Below are positions 385 through 60,742 of a DNA stretch of 64,000 nucleotides, one piece after another. This stretch comes from an uncultured Candidatus Saccharibacteria bacterium (lineage in GTDB: Bacteria > Patescibacteriota > Minisyncoccia > Phycocordibacterales > UBA12445). Below the pieces are notes generated by a model. It had not been told where the DNA came from. It did no database searches and saw only the letters and a program-made list of their open reading frames with translations. Where the stretch lies: NCBI GenBank assembly GCA_964649715.1, contig CAZYTH010000006.1:6341-70340 (forward strand), read 5' to 3'. Made by a program: the position numbers and the translations under genes. Position 1 is the stretch's first letter. Every line of letters begins with the position of its first letter.

Positions 385-1854
385 TTGCTTTTGAAAATGT
401 GTAAAAATAAAAATAATACAATAAATAATAAAAATAGGGGGGCTATTTTAATACAACTACTTGTGTTCAGCACCTTGTCTGCTGTTTTGATAACCGCCTT
501 GGCGAATTGGAGTGCTGTTAATTTGCGTGCGGGAAGGAAGGAATACGCTAGAGAGGTTGCCTTTCAGGTTGCGGAGGCGGGAATAGATTATTACAGATGG
601 CATTTAGCTCAAGCACCACTTGATTTTACGGATGGAACAGGGGAGTCCGGCCCCTATATTCATGACTACAAGGATAAGAACGGAAACATTATTGGAAGTT
701 TTTCTTTGGAGATATTTCCCCCTGAAATTGGAACAACAAAAGTTACCGTAACTTCGACTGGAAAGGTTTTGTCAGACCCAAACATTTTCAGAAAAATAGA
801 GGTACAGTTTGCAAAGCCGTCTCTCTCAAAATTTGCAGTTATTACCGAAAACACAATTAGGTTCGAAGAGGGGACAGAGGTTTTTGGACCAATACATTCA
901 AACGGTGGAATAAGATTTGACGGTTTCGCACACAACATAATCTCAAGTTCTCTAACTGACTATAACGATCCTGATCATTTTGGTAACAAAGAATTTGCCG
1001 TTCACACCCACGTTTCTCCTGTGGATCCTAATCCTCCGTCAAACGTACCGGTAAGAAATGATGTTTTTGGAGCAGGGAGACAATTTCCCGTTCCTGCTAT
1101 TGATTTTGGAAAATTTACAAATGATCTTTCAGAAATTAAAACGAAGGCACAAGAAGATGGTCTATATTTTTCTAGCTCTGGCAAAAGTGGTTATCATGTA
1201 ATTTTGAAAATAGACGATACTCTTGAAGTCTATAAGGTAACAGCTTTGATTTCTGTTCCTCAAAATTGTACACAACCATTGGGTCAATTTGGATGGGGAA
1301 CATGGAGTATTAAAAACGAGGAGTTTATTGGAAGTTACGATTTTCCACCAAACGGATTGTTGTTTTTGGAAGATCATGTTTGGGTTGAAGGTCAGATAGA
1401 TACTGCAAGATTAACCATAGCAGTTGGAAAATTTCCTGAAAATCAAGGGCAAGAAAGAAACATAACTGTTAATAATAATCTTCTTTACACAAATTACGAT
1501 GGAAGGGATGGTATCGGACTTATTGCTCAGGGAAATATAAACGCAGGAATGGTGAGTGCAGATGTGTTAAGAATAGACGCTGCTCTTATCGCTAAAAACG
1601 ATAGAGTCGGGAGATATTATTATTCTCCGCCTTCTGACAAAAAAGATAGATGTTCGCCTTATCACATACGAGATACTATAACTTTATATGGTTCATTGGC
1701 GACAAATAAAAATTACGGTTTTTCTTATGAAGATGGAACTGGTTATCAAAATATAAATATTATTTATGATGCTAATTTATTATGGTCTGCTCCACCAGAT
1801 TTTCCGCTAACCACAGATCAGTATCAGATAACTTCTTGGAAAGAAATAAAATAA
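385..1854 (+). CDS. Membrane-anchored hypothetical protein with an N-terminal hydrophobic helix; possibly a pilus-associated or PilX-like component
   Basis: 489-aa ORF. N-terminal 'RGAILIQLLVFSTLSAVLITALA' hydrophobic segment after a basic stretch, with no canonical G-F-T-L-I-E prepilin motif. No recognisable catalytic motifs. Confidence 0.3.
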   Translation: MLLKMCKNKNNTINNKNRGAILIQLLVFSTLSAVLITALANWSAVNLRAGRKEYAREVAFQVAEAGIDYYRWHLAQAPLDFTDGTGESGPYIHDYKDKNGNIIGSFSLEIFPPEIGTTKVTVTSTGKVLSDPNIFRKIEVQFAKPSLSKFAVITENTIRFEEGTEVFGPIHSNGGIRFDGFAHNIISSSLTDYNDPDHFGNKEFAVHTHVSPVDPNPPSNVPVRNDVFGAGRQFPVPAIDFGKFTNDLSEIKTKAQEDGLYFSSSGKSGYHVILKIDDTLEVYKVTALISVPQNCTQPLGQFGWGTWSIKNEEFIGSYDFPPNGLLFLEDHVWVEGQIDTARLTIAVGKFPENQGQERNITVNNNLLYTNYDGRDGIGLIAQGNINAGMVSADVLRIDAALIAKNDRVGRYYYSPPSDKKDRCSPYHIRDTITLYGSLATNKNYGFSYEDGTGYQNINIIYDANLLWSAPPDFPLTTDQYQITSWKEIK

Positions 1855-1945: not shown

Positions 1946-2689
1946 ATGAAAAAAGGTAAGCTCGTTATCGTTAATTGGGGAATGTGGCCGGAAACTTTTC
2001 GCGAAGCATTTATGTTATCTAAAATTTTTTCTAAAAATGTTCTTGAATTTAAAAATATTTTTTTTGTTTTATGCCCACCCTCACCTTTCATTCATCATGT
2101 GCGTTTGAATGTTTCTCAAAATAAAAATATATCAATAGGGGCGCAGGATATTTTTTATGAAAACAAAGGAAGATACACAGGGCAAGTCTCATCCAAAATG
2201 CTTAGGTCTCTTGGCGCTAAATATGTGGTAATCGGTCATCCCGAGAAAAGAAAAACAGGAGAAACAGATGAGATTATAAATAAAAAAATAAAATTAGCGG
2301 TTAGGATGGGTCTCAAGGTTATATTATTCGTGGGAGAAAGAGAGCGAGATGTTTCAGGAAACTATTTCAAGCAGATTGGTTTTCAAATAAGAGAGGGTTT
2401 GAGAAACATTCAAAAAAAATATGTCAAAGAACTAATAATTGTTTATCGGCCACTTGTAATCGTAAAGGAAAATATTTTTTGTGAAACGGAAGAGATACCT
2501 CTTTTTATTAAAAAGGTGCTTGTTGAAATGTTTGGCAGAGATGCTGGTTTGTCCATAACAATCATATATGGAGGTTTTATTGATAAAAAAAATATAAGAA
2601 TTATTTTGGATAATGTTAATTTAGGAGGATTGTTTCTTGAAAGGGAAGATGCGGAAATTTTAAATTTTCTTAAAAACAAAAAAGAATGA
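1946..2689 (+). CDS. tpiA: Triosephosphate isomerase-like protein (TIM fold), apparently lacking catalytic Lys and Glu
   Basis: Alignable by eye to TpiA: 'IGAQDIF...YTGQVSSKML..GAKYVVIGHPEKR' against 'LGAQNV..FTGETSAAML..GAQYIIIGHSERR', and 'IIYGGFIDKKN' against 'IQYGGSVNASN'. 'NWGMW' replaces NWKMN (Lys13 to Gly) and 'VYRPLVIV' replaces AYEPVWAIGTG (Glu165 to Arg). Probable start ATG at 1946, after a TATAAT at 1933. Confidence 0.55.
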   Translation: MKKGKLVIVNWGMWPETFREAFMLSKIFSKNVLEFKNIFFVLCPPSPFIHHVRLNVSQNKNISIGAQDIFYENKGRYTGQVSSKMLRSLGAKYVVIGHPEKRKTGETDEIINKKIKLAVRMGLKVILFVGERERDVSGNYFKQIGFQIREGLRNIQKKYVKELIIVYRPLVIVKENIFCETEEIPLFIKKVLVEMFGRDAGLSITIIYGGFIDKKNIRIILDNVNLGGLFLEREDAEILNFLKNKKE

Positions 2690-2735: not shown

Positions 2736-3848
2736 ATGAATATACCAACGGTAGCTGAGTTTGGCGATTTGAGAAAAAAGACGATTCTTTTGCGTCTTGA
2801 TTTGAATGTTCCTATAAGGGAGGGAGTCATTGAGAACAATTATAGGATAGACCGTTCTTTAAAAACAATCGATTTTTTGAAAAAATCAGGAGCCAGAACT
2901 GTGATCATTAGCCATATCGGTTCTGACAATTCTGAAAGTCTTTCTGTTGTGGCCAAGTATTTAAAAGTTCCTCTTTATCCTTTGGTAATTGATGATTATC
3001 TGAAGGGGGTGGTTAGGGGGATGGGTGATGGTGAGGTTATTATGTTAGAAAATTTAAGAAAAAATGACGGGGAAAAAAATAACGATGATGATTTTGCAAA
3101 AAAACTTTCTGGATTAGCTGACATTTATGTGAACGAGGCTTTTTCTGTTTCTCATAGAGAGCATGCATCAATTGTTGGCTTACCGAAATACCTTCCTTCT
3201 TTTTTTGGTTTTTTGTTTAAAGAAGAGATAGAAAATTTATCTCTGGCTCTTGAGCCAGAGCATCCTTTTGTTTTGGTTTTGGGTGGTGCGAAATTTAGTA
3301 CGAAATTACCACTTATTAAAAAATTTTTGAAAATTGCTGACAAGATATTTATAGGAGGTGCTCTTGCAAATAGTTTTTTAAAAGAGATGGGATATGAAAC
3401 AGGAAAATCTTCTGTTGACGAAAAGGAATTTGGGTTAAAGAATCTTATGGAACAAAAAAATATTTTTATACCGCAAGACGTTGTTGTAGACACTCTTGGT
3501 AGTGTTCGTGTAAAAGATATCGATTTGATAGATAAGGAAGATATCATAATGGATATCGGACCTGGATTCTCTAAAAAAATAGAGGATGCCGTCATTGGTT
3601 CTAGATTTATTTTATGGAATGGACCTCTCGGTTTTTTTGAAAAAGGTTTTTGCGAATCGACCAAGGGTCTTGCTATTGCAATTTCCAAAAATGAAATAAA
3701 GAGCATTATTGGAGGAGGAGACACAATATCGGCCGTGCAACAACTTAAGATATCTGATAGATTTACTTTTATATCTTCGGGTGGTGGGGCGATGATACAA
3801 TTTCTTGCAAACGGAAGTCTTCCTGGGATAGATGCTATCGTGGGATGA
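2736..3848 (+). CDS. pgk: Phosphoglycerate kinase
   Basis: 370 aa. N-terminal 'KKTILLRLDLNVP...NNYRIDRSLKTIDFL..GARTVIISHIG' matches the PGK substrate-binding signature. Overall two-domain length is typical. Confidence 0.85.
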   Translation: MNIPTVAEFGDLRKKTILLRLDLNVPIREGVIENNYRIDRSLKTIDFLKKSGARTVIISHIGSDNSESLSVVAKYLKVPLYPLVIDDYLKGVVRGMGDGEVIMLENLRKNDGEKNNDDDFAKKLSGLADIYVNEAFSVSHREHASIVGLPKYLPSFFGFLFKEEIENLSLALEPEHPFVLVLGGAKFSTKLPLIKKFLKIADKIFIGGALANSFLKEMGYETGKSSVDEKEFGLKNLMEQKNIFIPQDVVVDTLGSVRVKDIDLIDKEDIIMDIGPGFSKKIEDAVIGSRFILWNGPLGFFEKGFCESTKGLAIAISKNEIKSIIGGGDTISAVQQLKISDRFTFISSGGGAMIQFLANGSLPGIDAIVG

Positions 3849-5336: not shown

Positions 5337-5420
5337 GCGCAGATGGCGAAATTGGTAGACGCACTACCTTGAGGTGGTAGCGCCCGCAAGGGCATGGAGG
5401 TTCAAATCCTCTTCTGCGCA
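5337..5420 (+). tRNA. tRNA-Leu (anticodon GAG), with a long variable arm
   Basis: Cloverleaf can be read: acceptor GCGCAGA/TCTGCGC, anticodon stem CTACC/GGTAG with loop TTGAGGT, long variable arm, T-arm GGAGGTTCAAATCCTC. No encoded CCA. Confidence 0.8.
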
Positions 5421-5421
5421 C

Positions 5422-5468: not shown

Positions 5469-5486
5469 CGCAGAAGAGGATTTGAA
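5469..5486 (-). repeat. Inverted partial copy of the tRNA-Leu 3' end (T-arm/acceptor)
   Basis: CGCAGAAGAGGATTTGAA is the exact reverse complement of tRNA-Leu positions 5401-5418. A further 'CCAAATCCTCTTGAG'-like fragment at about 5562 and a repeated 'AAAGCGAAAGCTTTT' lie nearby. Confidence 0.6.
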
Positions 5487-5785
5487 GCCCGATTGAGTAT
5501 TTTTTGTAGCCTGGAAAAGGCGTACAAAAAATCCAATCGGGGTACTGGTCCCGTAAGGACCAAATCCTCTTGAGTCTATAAAAGCGAAAGCTTTTTGTTT
5601 TTTTGCTTGTAGAATAGAGACCCAAAAGACGTATCTTGTATAAAGAAAGATAGGCTGGTTGGAGTACTTAAAATTTTCAATGAAGATTAGTGCGTGATCA
5701 AAACCCCTATATTGATAGACAAAAAAGTATATTTGTTCTAGCATTTATTCAAAAGGTACATTGAACACATAAGGAGGCTTTTATT

Positions 5786-18313: not shown

Positions 18314-19891
18314 ATGTCAAATCTCACAAAAAAACAAAAACAAGTCTTTGACTTTGTAAATAATTATATTTCCGAAAACGGCATATCTCCGACCATTGAG
18401 GAGATACGAAAAAAACTAAAACTCAAAGCCGTTTCCACAATTCATGAACATATCAATTCCCTCAAAGCAAAGGGGTATCTTTCAAAGTCTGAAAATTCGG
18501 CTAGAAGTCTATTACTGAGAAAAGAAATCAAATCTATCATAGAAATTCCGATTTTAGGTAGAATCGCTGCGGGATATCCCATAGAAGCAATAGAAAATAT
18601 AGAGGATACTATCTCCATAGTTAATCCGAGCATTAAAACATCAGAAGGATATTATGCCTTGCGTGTAGTAGGAGAAAGTATGATTGATGAAGGAATTTTT
18701 GACGGAGATATTGTTGTAATAAAAAAGCAGTCTGTTGCAGAGAATGGGCAGACGGTTGTTGCTATTATTGATGACAACGAAGCAACACTCAAAAAATTAT
18801 ACCGAGAGAAAACACGGTACCGACTTGAACCAAGAAATCAAAATCTACTTCCTCTTTATCGCAAAGAGGTTGAGGTAAGAGGTGTTGTTGTTCAAATTAT
18901 AAGCAATATAGCAGACAGGCCAGAAAAAATATTCTCAAAAAAGACAAAACACGGATTTAAGACAATTGATCTTTTTGCTGGGGTTGGTGGAATACGATTA
19001 GGTTTTGAAAATGCCGGATTTAAAACAGTTTTCGCAAATGATTTTGAGCCTCAATGTAAAGATACCTATGATCTAAACTTTAGAGATTCGAAATTGGTTG
19101 TTGAGGATATTAGAAAGATTGGGATTGATGATTTACCTAAATTTGATTTTCTTCTGGGCGGTTTCCCTTGCCAGGCTTTTTCTATCGCAGGATATAGACA
19201 AGGATTTGATGACGAGAAAGGTAGAGGAAATTTATTTTTTGATATTGCAAGGATTCTTGACGCACGAAAGCCCGAAGGCTTTCTGCTTGAGAATGTAAAA
19301 AACTTAAAAAGTCACGATGGGGGTAAGACTTTCAGAATTATTCAAGAGACACTAGAAAATCTTGGCTATTATTTGAAAACAAAAGTTTTAAACAGTATGG
19401 AATACGGTAATATTCCACAAAACAGAGAACGAGTTTATGTGGTTGGTTTTAGAAATAAAGACTACTCCGATAAGTTTGAGTTTCCTAACCCAGTAAAATT
19501 AACTGTGAAAATTACTGACTTACTAGAGAAAAATGTACCCGATAAATACTACTACAACGGCAAGCCGTTGTTTGAAAAACTGAAAGATTTTATAAAAGAA
19601 GAAGGAAAAGTTTATCAATGGCGTAGGCAATATGTCCGAGAAAATAAGAGTGGTGTTTGTCCAACATTAACGGCAAATATGGGGACAGGTGGACACAATG
19701 TGCCAATTATTAAAGACAAGAAAGGTATCAGGAAATTAACTCCGCTAGAATGTGCTCGTATTCAAGGTTTTCCTACTGATTACAAAATACCAAAACTAGC
19801 CGATTCTGCTTTATATAAACAATTTGGAAATTCTGTCAGTGTTCCAGTTATTGAGGCTGTGGGAAGACAAATGATGAAAGCGATGGAATAA
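18314..19891 (+). CDS. Fusion protein: full-length LexA repressor (wHTH plus S24 peptidase) fused to a DNA (cytosine-5)-methyltransferase
   Basis: The N-terminal ~195 aa align throughout to E. coli LexA: 'KKQKQVFDFV..ISENGISPTIEEI' HTH, 'IPILGRIAAGYPIEA' Ala-Gly cleavage site, 'LRVVGESMIDEGIFDGD' Ser nucleophile, 'ATLKKL' Lys. The C-terminal ~320 aa carry C5-MTase motifs: I 'DLFAGVGGIRLGF', IV 'GGFPCQAFSIAGYRQG', VI 'ENVKNL', X 'QFGNSVSVPVIEAV'. Confidence 0.85.
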   Translation: MSNLTKKQKQVFDFVNNYISENGISPTIEEIRKKLKLKAVSTIHEHINSLKAKGYLSKSENSARSLLLRKEIKSIIEIPILGRIAAGYPIEAIENIEDTISIVNPSIKTSEGYYALRVVGESMIDEGIFDGDIVVIKKQSVAENGQTVVAIIDDNEATLKKLYREKTRYRLEPRNQNLLPLYRKEVEVRGVVVQIISNIADRPEKIFSKKTKHGFKTIDLFAGVGGIRLGFENAGFKTVFANDFEPQCKDTYDLNFRDSKLVVEDIRKIGIDDLPKFDFLLGGFPCQAFSIAGYRQGFDDEKGRGNLFFDIARILDARKPEGFLLENVKNLKSHDGGKTFRIIQETLENLGYYLKTKVLNSMEYGNIPQNRERVYVVGFRNKDYSDKFEFPNPVKLTVKITDLLEKNVPDKYYYNGKPLFEKLKDFIKEEGKVYQWRRQYVRENKSGVCPTLTANMGTGGHNVPIIKDKKGIRKLTPLECARIQGFPTDYKIPKLADSALYKQFGNSVSVPVIEAVGRQMMKAME

Positions 19892-19895
19892 ATAA

Positions 19896-20759
19896 TTATT
19901 CCATAAATTCAACAGCAATATTTTTGAGATCTTCAATGCGTGTCTTGAGATATTCTACACCAACATTTTCTTCTCTTAAATTAACATGTTTTGCAATAAA
20001 TGAAGTTGTTATCTTAAGCGCCGAGTTATTATCAATCCATTTTTTAGGGTGTAGTCGTAATTCAAGTCTTTTCTTGGCTTTATAGATTTTTGTATTTCCA
20101 TATTCATTATCAATAAAATCATCTAGAAAAACAGATTTATTAGTAGTTCTTTTTTTGTTAACCCTAACATTATTTAAGTTTTTTAAATTAAGCACTGCAC
20201 CTGTGAAATAGAAATCGGCACCCTCTATTTGAGTACCGGGTCTCAGTATAAAAAAGTAATATATCTTTTTTATCTTATAGGTCTTGTTTAATGATTCATA
20301 TTTTTCACTATAAAGTTTTATCCAACTATTCTTTATCTCTACATATTTTCCGTTTGCAAACATTGCATCCAAATGAATGCCTGGTCCTTCAAATTTTTGA
20401 CCCAGAGAAGCCTCTCCACTATCACTATTTGATACCTGTCCAGAGTTATTTAATTTAATATTGAGCATTTTGATATCAGCTCCCCATTTATCACGTTCAT
20501 TATATATATCAATTGGATAAGAACCAGCACCAACAGGCTTAACATCAAGTGATTGAGTAAACCACTGCTCTATATGCTCTTTTGGAATTTGAATAGGCAA
20601 TTGTCTTTGTCCAATTTTAGGCTCAGGTTGAGCAAATAATGACTTAATAATAAAATACTTAATTATATTTTTTGATTTATCATCTAGAAAATCCAATAAC
20701 TCCTTGCTGGACAAAGGATTAATTACATATTTATTATATTTTGGAGATACTTTTTTCAT
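19896..20759 (-). CDS. Putative restriction endonuclease (PD-(D/E)xK candidate) converging on the methyltransferase
   Basis: 287 aa, tail-to-tail with a 4-bp gap to the MTase. 'GIHLDAMFANGKYVEIKNSW' fits D-x10-E-x-K. No other recognisable family. Confidence 0.4.
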   Translation of the reverse strand: MKKVSPKYNKYVINPLSSKELLDFLDDKSKNIIKYFIIKSLFAQPEPKIGQRQLPIQIPKEHIEQWFTQSLDVKPVGAGSYPIDIYNERDKWGADIKMLNIKLNNSGQVSNSDSGEASLGQKFEGPGIHLDAMFANGKYVEIKNSWIKLYSEKYESLNKTYKIKKIYYFFILRPGTQIEGADFYFTGAVLNLKNLNNVRVNKKRTTNKSVFLDDFIDNEYGNTKIYKAKKRLELRLHPKKWIDNNSALKITTSFIAKHVNLREENVGVEYLKTRIEDLKNIAVEFME

Positions 20760-20784
20760 AAAGTATGTCTAATTATGACACAAT

Positions 20785-21085
20785 TCTCAATTTTGGCGGT
20801 GTTTTTTGGACGAAGTTCGAACGTTACACGTTCGGTAGAGGTTTCCCATCCGCCTCGGGCGGACAAGGGAGAACCTTTTCTCATCCCTCACAGAAGCCAC
20901 GCAGTTGGCTTCTGATTCCGATTTCCAATTTTGGCGGAGAGGGAGGGATTCGAACATTACATGTTCAGTACACCTTTTGGATCTTTTGTTTCGCTTCGCT
21001 CACAAAATATGCTCAAAAGGTTTTCGAACCCTCCCCGCAATGCATTTGGTATGCATTGCTTCTCCTATGCTCAAAAACTTCGTTT
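20785..21085 (+). repeat. Cluster of degenerate tRNA-Ser 3'-end fragments (att-site-like scars)
   Basis: 'CAATTTTGGCGG' occurs at 20785 and 20928. 20931-20954 'TGGCGGAGAGGGAGGGATTCGAAC' is identical to the 3' end of tRNA-Ser at 21927. After a ~68-bp interruption, 'TTCGAACCCTCCCCGCAATGCATTTGGTATGCATTGC' gives a T-arm plus variable-arm-like hairpin. 'ATGCTCAAAA' is repeated twice. Confidence 0.5.
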
Positions 21086-21328
21086 TTATCGCTACAGTGG
21101 TGATTGGCGGAACTTTGAACCAGTCGGTAGGGTGAGTTTCGCCAAACTTGATAAAAGTATACAGAAATTGAGGATAATTTACAGAGAAAAGCCCGAATGG
21201 TTTGAAATTCCTGATTTTACTCAAAAAACCTACTAAACATCAAAATGTTTGATGGAACTACTAATTTTTCGAACTTCCATCGCACAAAGTGATTTACGAC
21301 TATAATCCGCTACAATCGGCCACATGCA

Positions 21329-21829
21329 TTATAGCTGTATTTTTCTAAGTCCCTCAGCTAGCTTTTGAAGTTTTTCGGGATCAGCCTTTGGGCCACTCCC
21401 AGAAGAAATCCATCCTTCATATTTTTCAAACCAAAATTGTTTTCCAGATAGAAATTGTTGCCACTCCCCACGTTTTAAATTCTCAGTACCATGCAGTGGC
21501 ACAAGTTTTATGTGGGCGTGATCAATACCGGTTCCCTCCATCATTAAACCCACCCGACCAGCATCATCAAAATACTTCTCAAGAATCTGAGCCACTGTTT
21601 TTGAAGCAAGAATAAATTGCTGTAAAATATCATCTGGCATTTTTAGTACATCGCTTCCAAAATGTTTCTTTGGAATTACGCATGAGAAACCTTCGGAGTT
21701 TGGATCAATCGCCAGAAACGCCATAAACTTATCATTCTCCCAAAATATTCCCGGCGTCTTTAATCTACCTTCTGCAATTTCACAGAATGGACATTTGTTG
21801 TCTTTAGTTTTTGCTTCGTATGTTGCCAT
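21329..21829 (-). CDS. HIT (histidine triad) family hydrolase
   Basis: N-terminal 'CPFCEI', and a histidine triad 'GIDHAHIKLVPLHG'. Confidence 0.8.
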   Translation of the reverse strand: MATYEAKTKDNKCPFCEIAEGRLKTPGIFWENDKFMAFLAIDPNSEGFSCVIPKKHFGSDVLKMPDDILQQFILASKTVAQILEKYFDDAGRVGLMMEGTGIDHAHIKLVPLHGTENLKRGEWQQFLSGKQFWFEKYEGWISSGSGPKADPEKLQKLAEGLRKIQL

Positions 21830-21926
21830 AAGTTCGAATCCCTTTAGGGTTCACTCATTTTATCATTTTCTAGTCTTGAAATGTAGCGCAAAATAAGGAT
21901 ATTTCATCGCTATTTTTAAAAACCAC

Positions 21927-22016
21927 TGGCGGAGAGGGAGGGATTCGAACCCTCGGACCCCGTTAAGGGTCAGCACATTAGCAGTGTGCTGCTTTCGACC
22001 GCTCAGCCACCTCTCC
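21927..22016 (-). tRNA. tRNA-Ser (anticodon GCT), long variable arm, CCA encoded
   Basis: Reverse complement reads GGAGAGGTGGCTGAGCGG...anticodon loop CTGCTAA...long variable arm...GGTTCGAATCCCTCCCTCTCCGCCA. Confidence 0.85.
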
Positions 22017-60370: not shown

Positions 60371-60433
60371 ATATTTTTTCTTTACTTTTTTTTGGATTTT
60401 ATCTATTGTATTCATAAATTGTATTTTTGTATT

Positions 60434-60502
60434 GCGGGATCGTCTAATGGTAGGACACATGCCTCTGGAGCATGTTATCTTGGTTCGAATCCAGGTCCCG
60501 CA
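60434..60502 (+). tRNA. tRNA-Gln (anticodon CTG)
   Basis: GCGGGATCGTCTAATGGTAGGACACATGCCTCTGGAGCATGTTATCTTGGTTCGAATCCAGGTCCCGCA. Architecture and T-arm match bacterial tRNA-Gln. Confidence 0.7.
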
Positions 60503-60540
60503 GTTAATAGCTTGATGTAAGCAAATGAACTGCTTCATTT

Positions 60541-60557
60541 GCGCCCTGGATTCGAAC
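60541..60557 (-). repeat. Inverted partial copy of the tRNA-Gln T-arm/3' end
   Basis: GCGCCCTGGATTCGAAC is the reverse complement of GTTCGAATCCAGGGCGC, against the tRNA's GTTCGAATCCAGGTCCCGC. Same arrangement as downstream of tRNA-Leu. Confidence 0.5.
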
Positions 60558-60742
60558 GCCGGAGCTATAATTTTATGAGCTTGCCTACCGGCAGGCAGGC
60601 ATTTGGCGAGCAAAATAGCGAGGCGGTGACCAGGCAAATTTTTTGGAAGAAAAATTTAGCCGAGGGAGAAATTCCAGGCCCCGCATTTTAAATGCAGTGA
60701 AAAACTACGGGAATAAAACAAACTTCTTTAATAAAGTATTTT

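Follow-up and report, generated by a model that had tools for sequence, protein, structure and literature searches.

Tandem repeats downstream of a tRNA gene have been described in Escherichia coli, where the 178-bp trailer repeats of tyrT make up the RtT family (RF00391). In each RtT repeat, a complementary arm comes first and closes a structured interior, and the tRNA 3' end (the 3' half of the T-stem, the acceptor strand and CCA) is copied last; RtT is, to our knowledge, confined to tyrT of enterobacteria. RtT itself is reported to be a processed product of the tyrT transcript, and its mode of action is unknown (bioRxiv 10.1101/2024.07.17.603846). We report here that a region close to a tRNA-Ser(GCT) gene, within a window of 64,000 nt (the whole stretch of DNA that was analyzed), consists of two tandem copies, units 1 and 2, of a multi-copy, non-coding, structured repeat of about 110-135 nt that follows tRNA and tmRNA genes, in their orientation, and is specific to Patescibacteria/Paceibacteria. 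This conclusion is well supported. By alignment and folding, unit 2 has the RtT architecture. The match of RtT to its sequence reaches 21.9 bits (E 0.25), below the gathering score of 45, and is limited to unit 2, with no match at E<=1 among nine other copies. The Patescibacteria element also differs from RtT in following more than 30 tRNA types as well as tmRNA, and in having a Y-shaped core of its own, an extra acceptor-like strand and hairpin, and a terminator ahead of the unit.

The attL and attR sites left by tyrosine integrases likewise put a directly repeated tRNA 3' end behind a tRNA or tmRNA gene that stays intact, and they share with the element junctions in the T-loop and anticodon loop, gain and loss between relatives, and decay of the distal copy. 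Those two loops are said to be the classical crossover positions of tRNA-targeting integrases. In contrast to such sites, the Patescibacteria element is only about 110-190 nt long, carries no integrase, contains an inverted copy of its target together with a covarying core, and occurs in tandem arrays, and its repeat often takes in trailer and terminator sequence of the locus. Fragments of tRNA genes have been treated more generally elsewhere (PMC9897764).

Integron attC sites and the attP(+) site of CTX phage offer a likeness of another kind. By analogy, the element would share with them a design of inverted segments forming a stem, bulged hairpins and a variable or branched tip, as well as a fold kept over stem sequence, Watson-Crick pairing on both strands, a non-autonomous existence and, in some cases, the bracketing of small gene cassettes. 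In the folds obtained, the inverted and direct arms do form a stem with a bulged hairpin and a branched tip. The stem of the Patescibacteria element, however, takes its sequence from a tRNA gene, not from core sites or dif, its tip (the core) is conserved in sequence, and most copies are without cargo. Neither IntI nor a Xer-type recombinase was found in the neighborhood within the window or near the copies inspected. REP, BIME and REPIN sequences, which are mobilized by RAYT, are likewise short, multi-copy, intergenic, hairpin-forming and often placed at gene 3' ends, with a short conserved motif beside a hairpin (GTAG in REP, GTACTG by P4 in the Patescibacteria element); here, by contrast, the arms are tRNA-specific and enclose a three-way junction, and no RAYT was identified. 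As with MITE and REP-like elements, copies are multiple and non-coding and have inverted arms, and are present in one locus and absent from another (L083 vs L196).

Results

Two tandem units near tRNA-Ser(GCT)

A preliminary description of this DNA had reported an intact tRNA-Ser(GCT), several fragments of its 3' part in the same orientation between 20785 and 21085, and a short recurring motif, all taken to be scars at an integration site. ARAGORN and Rfam both recover the tRNA gene where it had been placed, on the minus strand (Table 1). Its last 24 nt including CCA, which read TGGCGGAGAGGGAGGGATTCGAAC on the plus strand, have a single exact recurrence, at 20932-20955 and in the same orientation; no match was obtained in 100 shuffles with up to three mismatches permitted, and none is expected by chance. 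While this copy is as described, the other fragments are of a different nature. The segment at 20794-20820, whose longest exact match to the tRNA-Ser end is 7 nt, is the decayed 3' arm of unit 1 and no copy of that end, the T-arm fragment (21018-21036) is inverted relative to the tRNA and pairs with the 24-mer at 20932-20955, and the TGGCGGAAC stretch at 21106 lies inside a 61-aa ORF. The motif, CAATTTTGGCGG, does occur twice, at 20788 and 20926, but is weak on its own (0.46 matches expected with one mismatch; two or more in 7 of 100 shuffles), and it recurs because the two units, of ~135 nt each, are tandem duplicates.

Table 1. Coordinates of the tRNA-Ser(GCT) locus, its two units and the related copies elsewhere in the window.
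Feature	Position	Strand	Evidence
tRNA-Ser(GCT), intact, encoded CCA	21927-22016	minus	ARAGORN; Rfam tRNA 61.2 bits
12-nt inverted copy of tRNA-Ser T-loop and T-stem 3' half, AGGGATTCGAAC on the tRNA strand	21832-21843	minus	repeat search
HIT-family gene, between tRNA-Ser and unit 2	21329-21829	minus	Pfam HIT
Small conserved ORF, 61 aa, convergent with HIT	21051-21236	plus	
Unit 2, structured element copy	20932-21065	minus	model R1 96.6 bits, E 3e-27; fold; exact repeat
Unit 2, acceptor-like strand GGAGAAG	21065-21059	minus	
Unit 2, hairpin	21059-21037	minus	
Unit 2, inverted arm GGGGAGGGTTCGAA	21036-21023	minus	
Unit 2, P2/P3	21022-20972	minus	
Unit 2, GTACTG	20971-20966	minus	
Unit 2, P4	20965-20953	minus	
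Unit 2, direct 24-nt copy of tRNA-Ser 3' end	20955-20932	minus	
Unit 1, diverged tandem copy	20794-20914	minus	model R1 61.8 bits, E 3e-16
Unit 1, hairpin	20914-20891	minus	
Unit 1, 5' arm GGGATGAG	20887-20880	minus	
Unit 1, CTACCG	20838-20833	minus	
Unit 1, P4	20832-20820	minus	
Unit 1, decayed 3' arm ending CCGCCA	20799-20794	minus	
Third type-1 copy	5469-5582	plus	nhmmer; sequence reading; model R1 87.5 bits
Related type-2 element, after tRNA-Gln(CTG) (60432-60504)	60519-60687	plus	

Unit 2 takes its arm sequences from tRNA-Ser(GCT), and since it is built on this gene, its last 24 nt are those of the tRNA end. The distal arm of unit 2 is perfect and its inverted arms carry one mismatch and one deletion, the opposite of the trend in the family. 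Unit 1, which is an older, decayed duplicate, has a GC-rich P2/P3 and a P4 that differs from that of unit 2 by compensatory change, and it stops ~35 nt short of the orf287 start codon. The region, of ~350 nt and with GGGG... and ...CCGCCA at its ends, folds strongly, with z about -7 on both strands. The 12-nt inverted copy near the tRNA gene (100% complementary to 21939-21950 and to 20944-20955) lies 84 nt past tRNA-Ser, directly abutting the HIT start codon, and is kept in locus L001.

Elsewhere in the window, the third type-1 copy lies 48 nt past tRNA-Leu(GAG) (5337-5421), behind a terminator and followed by a second one, and both its inverted arm, GCAGAAGAGGATTTGAA (5470-5486), and its direct arm, CAAATCCTCTT (5561-5571), match tRNA-Leu. 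The type-2 element has the conserved hairpin of type 1 and inverted and direct arms derived from tRNA-Gln, with a different core that is common to loci L012 and L074.

Architecture and covariation of the element family

In a full unit, the tRNA gene is followed by a terminator hairpin and then by an inverted copy of the acceptor 3' strand, a conserved 9-bp hairpin, and an inverted copy of the T-stem 3' half and T-loop. A core in the form of a Y-shaped three-way junction comes next (a long hairpin P2/P3, the junction GTACTG and a short P4 with a GTA loop), and the unit closes with a direct copy of the tRNA 3' end. RNAalifold, applied to nine copies from loci retrieved through the HIT protein, a search in which the element was not used, gives compensatory changes in 21 of 24 pairs. 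Across 136 distinct copies, 91.2% of cells are paired, compared with 65.4% after shuffling and about 45% with partners slid, and double-change cells number 730 versus 218; the outer P1 is paired in only 76%. The covariance model R1 returned 10 strong matches (>60 bits) in the window and 4 of the 80 HIT loci, and at least 139 matches in 100 metagenome loci plus 31 more, so that the element counts at least about 170 copies across Patescibacteria contigs, usually without cargo.

Three core types (1-3) are found on one tRNA-like scaffold, and the likeness of cores ignores the identity of the tRNA: the core behind tRNA-Leu in L037 is nearest to the window's Ser unit and not to its Leu unit. Copies reduced to the core occur in the sense orientation in a 16S rRNA leader and upstream of dus; the genes beside core-only copies have housekeeping roles. 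As far as comparative sequence evidence goes, the case that the core is under selection is already strong.

The element is absent from Rfam 15, and no prior description was found in the literature searched. Rfam searches at E<=1-10, covering unit 2, nine strong copies, 11 core-only loci and three type-2/3 loci, returned only tRNA and chance matches, and a known ribozyme, intron or riboswitch was rejected on these grounds. A tmRNA, including two-piece or permuted forms, was likewise rejected: ARAGORN found none in the window, Rfam none at E<=10, and no tag-like ORF was seen by eye. Nor does a particular protein gene appear to be linked to the element, the first downstream ORFs of 69 elements looking diverse when their translations were read by eye. 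No recombinase or transposase was linked to it in the neighborhood within the window or at the copies inspected, and a motif regex, which is a crude test, picked up no tyrosine recombinase near copies. A pattern scan of viral contigs gave 0 matches to the element, and a phage-borne attP was rejected accordingly.

Arms that follow the neighboring tRNA

Among the 148 matches listed, 81 start 0-100 nt past a tRNA or tmRNA gene on the same strand, with more than 30 anticodons represented; the tmRNAs of L113 and L118, each followed by the element, are normal according to ARAGORN. The arms match their own tRNA with a median longest exact match of 9.5 nt (direct) and 11 nt (inverted), against 5 nt for other tRNAs. 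In the set retrieved through the HIT protein, about 17 of 64 tRNAs are accompanied, within 200 nt, by a copy 12 nt or longer, where we estimate that about 0.6 would be expected. Of 39 positions at which tRNA and distal arm disagree, the inverted arm agrees with the tRNA at 32 and with the distal arm at 4, and 33 of 81 distal arms have decayed below 10/13 matches.

The duplicated segment, a long one of 13-60 nt, is tRNA-specific, and in many cases the direct repeat extends past the tRNA end into trailer and terminator sequence particular to the locus (10 of 45 above the 95th percentile of the control), which fits local tandem duplication at least as well as the import of a foreign tRNA end. The end of a partial tRNA copy in the family lies at the T-loop or, in a mirror variant (L136 and L146), at the anticodon loop, with a repeated 5' half of the tRNA joined there to the family's core. 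At one orthologous pair of loci, tRNA-Lys is followed directly by the next gene in L196, and ~230 nt of units are inserted at this point in L083; the comparison shows that units come and go at tRNA 3' ends. A tRNA and its matching element are separated by genes at only about four loci (the window, L109, L098 and L046). No excised or circular form was seen.

In L053, L083 and W_Leu, perfect palindromes run from the acceptor 3' strand via the trailer to the inverted copy and are centered on the loop of the terminator. Such palindromes are what one would look for if the units were a functionless mutational by-product of replication template switching at the tRNA terminator hairpin and T-arm palindromes (fold-back, DUP-INV-DUP), with the core merely inherited, and the inverted arm tracking the tRNA and the direct repeats extending into trailer and terminator can be counted on the same side. 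We nonetheless consider this explanation highly unlikely: it does not account for a core whose sequence and structure are conserved, with compensatory changes, across tRNAs, genomes and samples, nor for the conserved hairpin between the two inverted segments, nor for a similarity of cores that is independent of tRNA identity.

Neighboring genes and the supposed island

The preliminary description had further held that only a HIT-family gene lies between the tRNA and the repeats, and that 18.3-21.9 kb, with a LexA-methyltransferase/nuclease pair, is a probable genomic island. The interval in fact holds the 61-aa ORF in addition to HIT. This ORF differs from its counterpart in L001 by 6/6/17 changes at the three codon positions and has homologs of 57 aa (P0121, P0122); being part of it, the TGGCGGAAC fragment was rejected as a relic of an integrase gene. 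The HIT gene is a conserved Paceibacteria gene, with 72-89% identity among its best 120 homologs. Gene order around it is generally fluid.

Both units (20794-21065) lie between the tRNA and the R-M-like genes (18314-20759), which are thus outside the interval set by tRNA-Ser and its copies, and no further copy of the element was found at 15.9-18.4 kb. Since the R-M genes are outside the repeats, the island is unsupported, and since the fragments are built from inverted and direct copies of the neighboring tRNA 3' end, they are not scars that bound one. Pfam searches of ten ORFs covering most of 13.8-25.5 kb identified RecG, GGDEF, LexA-Dcm, HIT, a Na/Ca exchanger, a PRTase and PilM, with no integrase or recombinase among them, and NCBIfam and PADLOC gave no matches. 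GC content is flat across the region, and GC3 of the LexA-Dcm gene lies within 1 sd of the window mean (-0.9 sd), with orf287 low at -1.9 sd (0.212 vs 0.315 +/- 0.053). For orf287, no match was obtained in Pfam, NCBIfam, PADLOC or PDB sequences, so that it is at most a putative nuclease.

The stretch at 16.0-21.3 kb is variable in comparison with one relative, L055, the only locus in which HIT is followed directly by RecG, and the R-M genes are absent from all 80 HIT loci; the tRNA-derived repeats do not delimit this variable stretch. In L096 the order is RecG ... tRNA-Ser plus element ... PRT-PilM, and its tRNA-Ser is not orthologous to that of the window, so that L096 does not serve as evidence for an entry of HIT between tRNA-Ser and its element.

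We therefore regard as most improbable the view that the repeats are attR-type scars of tyrosine-integrase insertions into tRNA-Ser marking an island that includes the R-M pair, even though the exact 24-nt direct repeat, the stretch missing from L055 and the AT-rich third codon positions of orf287 all speak for it. After integration, the inserted element is normally bounded by a complete tRNA copy at one end and a partial copy at the other (PMC9897764), and this too was counted in its favor. The geometry of the repeats already contradicts it, however, with the R-M genes beyond the last repeat and no integrase among the ORFs searched. Its supposed scars have a covarying core and inverted arms and stand behind dozens of other tRNAs at only 50-100 nt, GC is flat, and HIT, inside the interval, is a conserved core gene that also directly follows tRNA-Ser(GCT) in L007 and L009. 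In the spirit of the original view, the repeat of the tRNA end is real and non-random, partial copies in the family end in tRNA loops, and L196 presents an empty site relative to L083; what is not supported is the reading as scars, given a conserved, covarying element behind more than 30 kinds of tRNA. A conserved regulatory leader in relatives had been named as evidence against integration, and here the fragments are conserved in other genomes, as parts of the element rather than of a demonstrated regulatory leader.

Discussion

The best reading of these results is, we suggest with some reserve, that of a non-autonomous element that acts as folded DNA and duplicates or inserts at tRNA 3' ends. 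That the action is as DNA rather than RNA we infer with at most moderate confidence. Under this proposal, when the strand is single or extruded, the inverted arms would fold back on the tRNA-end sequence, so that the resulting stem would reproduce the duplex sequence of the 3' end of the tRNA gene, and the Y-shaped core capping the stem would likely serve as a protein-binding platform. Either strand exchange or template switching, located in the T-loop (for the mirror variant, in the anticodon loop), would add, remove and multiply units at tRNA 3' ends. The outcome would be a duplicated T-loop-to-terminator segment beside an intact tRNA gene, with the displaced copy left distally and free to decay. 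The enzyme would be encoded elsewhere in the genome, which is why the proposal has the element non-autonomous, in a manner that may resemble REPIN, attC or CTX-attP sites. Genes could end up between a tRNA and its element, as HIT and the 61-aa ORF may have done here.

Several DNA-level clues may be read from the sequences: the scarcity of G-U pairs, the triloops, the terminator, and an inverted arm that tracks the tRNA. In the core helices, G-U pairs make up 1.2% and A-C 0.8%, a ratio of 1.5:1, in copies that are related sequences and were fetched with a pattern fixing parts of P4, whereas 203 tRNAs of these loci have, in their acceptor and T stems, 5.0% and 0.5%, a ratio of 9:1 (Fisher p values 2e-14 and 2e-5). 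The loops of the element are GAA or GTA triloops, including GCGAAGC.

The main rival to the folded-DNA reading is a processed RNA of the RtT kind, which we judge rather unlikely. On this account, a tRNA-scaffolded small RNA would be transcribed with or after the tRNA and would adopt a pseudo-tRNA fold in which the Y-core replaces the T-loop; RNase P, RNase Z and the CCA-adding enzyme would excise and stabilize it, the core would be the functional module that binds a protein or ligand, and the arms would match the neighboring tRNA because units arise by local duplication. All ten full units examined do fold as cloverleaf-like pseudo-tRNAs, covariation is strong with conserved junction nucleotides, and different cores share one scaffold. 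Without exception the element lies on the strand of its tRNA, and several of the inspected copies are followed by a terminator of their own. The design of E. coli RtT, with a 5' arm complementary to the T-stem 3' half and then a tRNA 3' tail, is shared, RtT being the sole Rfam match, and the core-only copies in the 16S leader and 5' of dus add to this side of the argument. A strong intrinsic terminator, on the other hand, stands between tRNA and unit, with no space there for a promoter of the unit's own. G-U pairs occur four times less often than in the tRNA stems of the same loci and are nearly symmetric with A-C. Pairing between the 5' arm and the unit's own 3' arm is not maintained, as seen in the outer P1 and in a 5' arm that tracks the tRNA instead, and many distal arms have decayed.

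The folded-DNA reading has difficulties of its own. Conserved unpaired nucleotides and a fixed orientation would also suit an RNA; no linked recombinase or transposase was found at the copies inspected, no viral copy in the contigs scanned and no circular form; core-only copies exist in the 16S leader and by dus; and the reading leaves unexplained how an element gains arms that match a new tRNA. A bolder version, which we hold to be unlikely, would have the Patescibacteria possess an undescribed, integron-like system of single-stranded DNA recombination, in which small, non-autonomous modules that mimic the 3' end of a tRNA or tmRNA gene and bear a predicted protein-binding core insert at the T-loop or anticodon loop, regenerate the gene, seed arrays and sometimes carry or trap cassettes such as HIT. 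If true, these reduced genomes would have their principal shuffling hotspots at tRNA 3' ends.

We note that duplications of tRNA ends, a signature customarily taken for that of islands and prophages, here come from a small, highly structured, multi-copy element, which stands behind about one in four tRNA genes at the loci retrieved via the HIT protein, and that tools which find islands by direct repeats of tRNA sequence will call too many of them in these genomes. If the element is an RNA, it represents a large new class of tRNA-scaffolded small RNAs and the first broad relative, by design, of the enigmatic RtT of E. coli. Action as folded DNA would point to an undescribed machinery for recombination or mobilization in candidate-phyla bacteria, and would explain the fluid gene order next to their tRNA genes, that around HIT included.

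Structured repeats behind tRNA genes

The fragments near tRNA-Ser do exist, but as parts of structured repeats that are linked to tRNA genes and make up a new and widespread family. By ARAGORN and Rfam, tRNA-Ser(GCT) is intact and sits where the preliminary description had it, and its 3' 24 nt, CCA included, are present exactly once more in the window in the same orientation, as had been claimed (shuffled sequence yields 0 matches to this 24-mer, even at 3 mismatches). The reported motif CAATTTTGGCGG also recurs, at 20788 and 20926, because two ~135-nt units are tandem duplicates. The other supposed fragments fared less well. That at 20794-20820 has a longest contiguous identity to the tRNA end of just 7 nt, TGGCGGAAC at 21106 falls within a small ORF, and the stretch at 21018-21036 is T-arm-like, as stated, but is no same-orientation copy, since it is inverted rather than direct. 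Given that small ORF, the interval from tRNA to copy does not hold HIT alone.

Folding of 20780-21160 is far more stable than that of shuffles on both strands (z ~ -6.9). Read 5' to 3' on the minus strand, unit 2 opens with an acceptor-like strand GGAGAAG (6/7 positions complementary to tRNA-Ser CCTCTCC) and a hairpin of 9 bp. Next come GGGGAGGGTTCGAA, which is the T-loop and 3' T-stem half of tRNA-Ser in reverse complement, one base short, and the long P2/P3 hairpin. GTACTG occupies the junction, P4 is a short hairpin whose loop is GTA, and the 24-nt tRNA-Ser end copy closes the unit. Unit 1 follows the same plan with a decayed 3' arm, and P4 shows compensatory changes between the two units (GAACAT/ATGTTC vs GAACGT/ACGTTC). 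Rfam returned no tmRNA, ribozyme or other family for the unit region, the sole weak match being RtT (21.9 bits, where the gathering score is 45).

Coordinates of the features discussed (window positions unless a locus is named; L001-L080 are HIT loci of relatives, higher numbers other loci fetched for comparison)
Feature	Position	Strand	Remark
tRNA-Ser(GCT)	21927-22016	-	
12-nt inverted tRNA-Ser copy	21832-21843		touches HIT start codon
HIT-family gene	21329-21829	-	
Small ORF	21051-21236	+	
Unit 2	20932-21065	-	
24-nt tRNA-Ser end copy	20932-20955	-	in unit 2
Unit 1	20794-20914	-	
orf287	19896-20759	-	convergent with methyltransferase
LexA-S24-Dcm	18314-19891	+	525 aa
Unit 2-like interior	5469-5582		behind tRNA-Leu(GAG)
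Type 2	~60519-60687		behind tRNA-Gln
Type 2	L012 ~510-640		
Type 2	L074 ~1720-1830	-	
Type 3	L026 ~2030-2180, ~2310-2490		
Mirror variant	L136 3500-3711		tRNA 5' half Pro-TGG
Mirror variant	L146 152-400	-	tRNA 5' half Thr-CGT
Core-only copy	L127 4758-4973		between ftsQ-like gene and dus
Core-only copy	L089 797-853	-	~280 nt upstream of 16S rRNA
Core-only copy	L145		~280 nt upstream of 16S rRNA
Mixed-module element	L120 ~2960-3160	-	
tmRNA gene	L113 216-1041		tag ANKVAKVKSPYFGMNSFAFAFA
tmRNA gene	L118 3400-4054		tag ANKVASVKSPYFGNFALAFA
tRNA, 8-nt anticodon loop ('tata')	L075 7399-7473		ARAGORN

HIT homologues place the organism within Patescibacteria/Paceibacteria, and 80 HIT loci were taken from GTDB genomes. 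In BLAST and nhmmer searches the unit 2 interior turned up in further genomes, beside tRNA-Leu (L037), tRNA-Arg (L053) and tRNA-Tyr plus tRNA-Trp (L046) and as a tandem pair upstream of HIT (L055), as well as elsewhere in the window. At each of these sites the arms are inverted and direct copies of the local tRNA 3' end, not of tRNA-Ser; likeness between cores is independent of tRNA identity, the L037 tRNA-Leu core being nearest to the window Ser unit. An RNAalifold consensus of 9 copies has compensatory changes at 21 of 24 pairs, and from these copies a covariance model, R1, was built. A degenerate pattern from the core matched in at least 120 metagenome contigs, with 0 matches in viral contigs, and R1 identified at least 139 + 31 copies at the pattern-matched metagenome loci. 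Across 136 distinct copies, 91.2% of cells are paired, vs 65.4% when shuffled and ~45% with partners slid, and double-change cells number 730 vs 218. Rfam at E<=1 contains no family for the elements, including the type 2 and type 3 forms described below, and a literature search found no description of the element.

A same-strand tRNA lies upstream within the locus for 105 of 148 copies, 81 of these 105 starting 0-100 nt past the tRNA 3' end, and among the upstream genes are two tmRNAs and tRNAs of over 30 anticodons. The direct arm has a median longest exact match of 9.5 nt to its own tRNA and 5 nt to other tRNAs (controls reach 10 nt or more in 0.6%); for the inverted arm the values are 11 and 5 nt (5%). 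Within the window and the HIT loci, a set retrieved via the HIT protein, ~17 of 64 tRNAs have a copy of their own end of at least 12 nt within 200 nt. An element stands behind each tmRNA gene; the L113 arm clearly comes from the tmRNA 3' end (12/13 nt), and the L118 match is just 6-7 nt. ARAGORN also reported several tRNA-Ser with the unusual anticodon ACT (A34), in L070, L074, L096 and L170.

Other cores occur on the same scaffold. Types 2 and 3, counted among the ~17 tRNA-end copies, share with type 1 (the core of units 1 and 2) the conserved hairpin GCAAnnnAACTGCTTnnnTTGC and the two arms taken from the tRNA, one inverted and one direct, and differ in the structured core. In a mirror-image variant, the type-1 core (as GGGTGAG-hairpin-core) is fused to a duplicated tRNA 5' half that stops within the anticodon loop, and the intact tRNA comes next. 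Integrases that target tRNAs reportedly cross over, classically, in the T-loop or the anticodon loop (Williams 2002, as cited in PMC9897764). Core-only copies, each closed by a stem of its own, lie in housekeeping intergenic regions; the L127, L120, L089 and L145 elements are ~200 nt long, with a covarying ~20-bp closing stem of their own and type-1 and type-2 modules mixed.

The R-M-like genes and the HIT gene

That 18.3-21.9 kb is a genomic island carrying the R-M-like genes, as the preliminary description proposed, is not supported and seems to us highly improbable. Units 1 and 2 both lie between tRNA-Ser and these genes, and the repeats therefore do not bracket them; no integrase is present among ten scanned ORFs spanning most of 13.8-25.5 kb, and GC content is flat. 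GC3 is ordinary in LexA-S24-Dcm, and orf287 departs from the window mean by 1.9 sd towards AT. HIT is directly followed by RecG in L055, so that 16.0-21.3 kb is variable relative to that genome; this variability is unrelated to the repeats. In L007 and L009, too, tRNA-Ser(GCT) is directly followed by HIT, a conserved gene.

In the LexA-S24-Dcm ORF a complete LexA, made up of DNA-binding domain and self-cleaving S24 peptidase, is fused with a cytosine-5 DNA methyltransferase that PADLOC and NCBIfam assign to type II (m5C); the product would be an SOS-type repressor covalently linked to an R-M methylase. The neighbouring orf287, of 287 aa, has no match in Pfam, NCBIfam, PADLOC or PDB sequences. 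Its GC3 of 0.212 is the lowest of ten genes tabulated around the finding, and its 5' leader contains units 1 and 2, which share its strand.

HIT shares 72-89% identity among the 120 best homologues listed, from diverse Patescibacteria. A same-strand tRNA of varying identity (Ser, Val, His, Ala, Asn, Leu, Trp, Gln) lies within 260 nt upstream of HIT in 17 of 79 loci, against a rough background of a T-loop-like motif in ~2% of random 260-nt windows, and an element separates tRNA and HIT in L001, L004, L012, L026, L046 and L055. The inverted 12-nt copy before HIT, which matches the T-loop and T-stem of tRNA-Ser perfectly, stands at precisely the point where an element core would start and is kept in L001; in both the window and L001, homology 5' of HIT begins directly after a ...CCGCCA tRNA-type end. 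The small ORF is likewise kept in L001, the closest relative, with differences by codon position of 6/6/17, mostly third, and 57-aa homologues occur elsewhere. Its C-terminus (57-61 aa forms) reads ...KLDKSIQKLRxIYREKPEWFEIPDFxQKxY, and it adjoins tRNA-Ser genes in three of five other contigs inspected (L201, L202 and L205, of L201-L205).

Folded DNA or RNA

Gain or loss of units shows at one orthologous site: in L196 the next gene directly follows tRNA-Lys, and in the orthologous L083 ~230 nt (1.5 units), terminating in a degenerate tRNA-end copy, are inserted at that place. Distal arms are identical in 27 of 81 cases and badly decayed in 33, and the direct repeat frequently runs on into trailer and terminator. 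No copy examined is linked to a recombinase.

The unit shares its design with E. coli RtT, and a complete unit is predicted to fold as a pseudo-tRNA, both of which speak for an RNA; an RtT-like, tRNA-scaffolded RNA is the main rival explanation. Four results speak against an RNA. The core helices are poor in G-U pairs: P2-P4 contain 1.2% G-U and 0.8% A-C (1.5:1), vs 5.0% and 0.5% (9:1) in the acceptor and T stems from 203 tRNAs of the same loci (Fisher p = 2e-14 for G-U fraction and 2e-5 for the ratio, from related sequences in which the retrieval pattern had fixed part of P4). Between tRNA and unit there is also a strong intrinsic terminator, often bidirectional, on which a perfect palindrome is centred that extends from the tRNA acceptor strand to its inverted copy. 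Where the distal arm has diverged from the tRNA (39 positions in 21 informative units), the inverted arm agrees with the real tRNA at 32 of them and with the distal arm at 4; the inverted arm tracks the real tRNA, and hence pseudo-tRNA pairing is not the thing maintained, and outer P1 is paired in just 76%. Finally, the loops take the form of GAA or GTA triloops, GCGAAGC among them, which are classic stable DNA mini-hairpins. We regard the RNA reading as unlikely. A pure mutational by-product of template switching would leave the conserved core unexplained and is very doubtful. The best explanation, which we offer tentatively, is that the repeats may be a non-autonomous element that works in the form of folded DNA and is duplicated or inserted where tRNA genes have their 3' ends.
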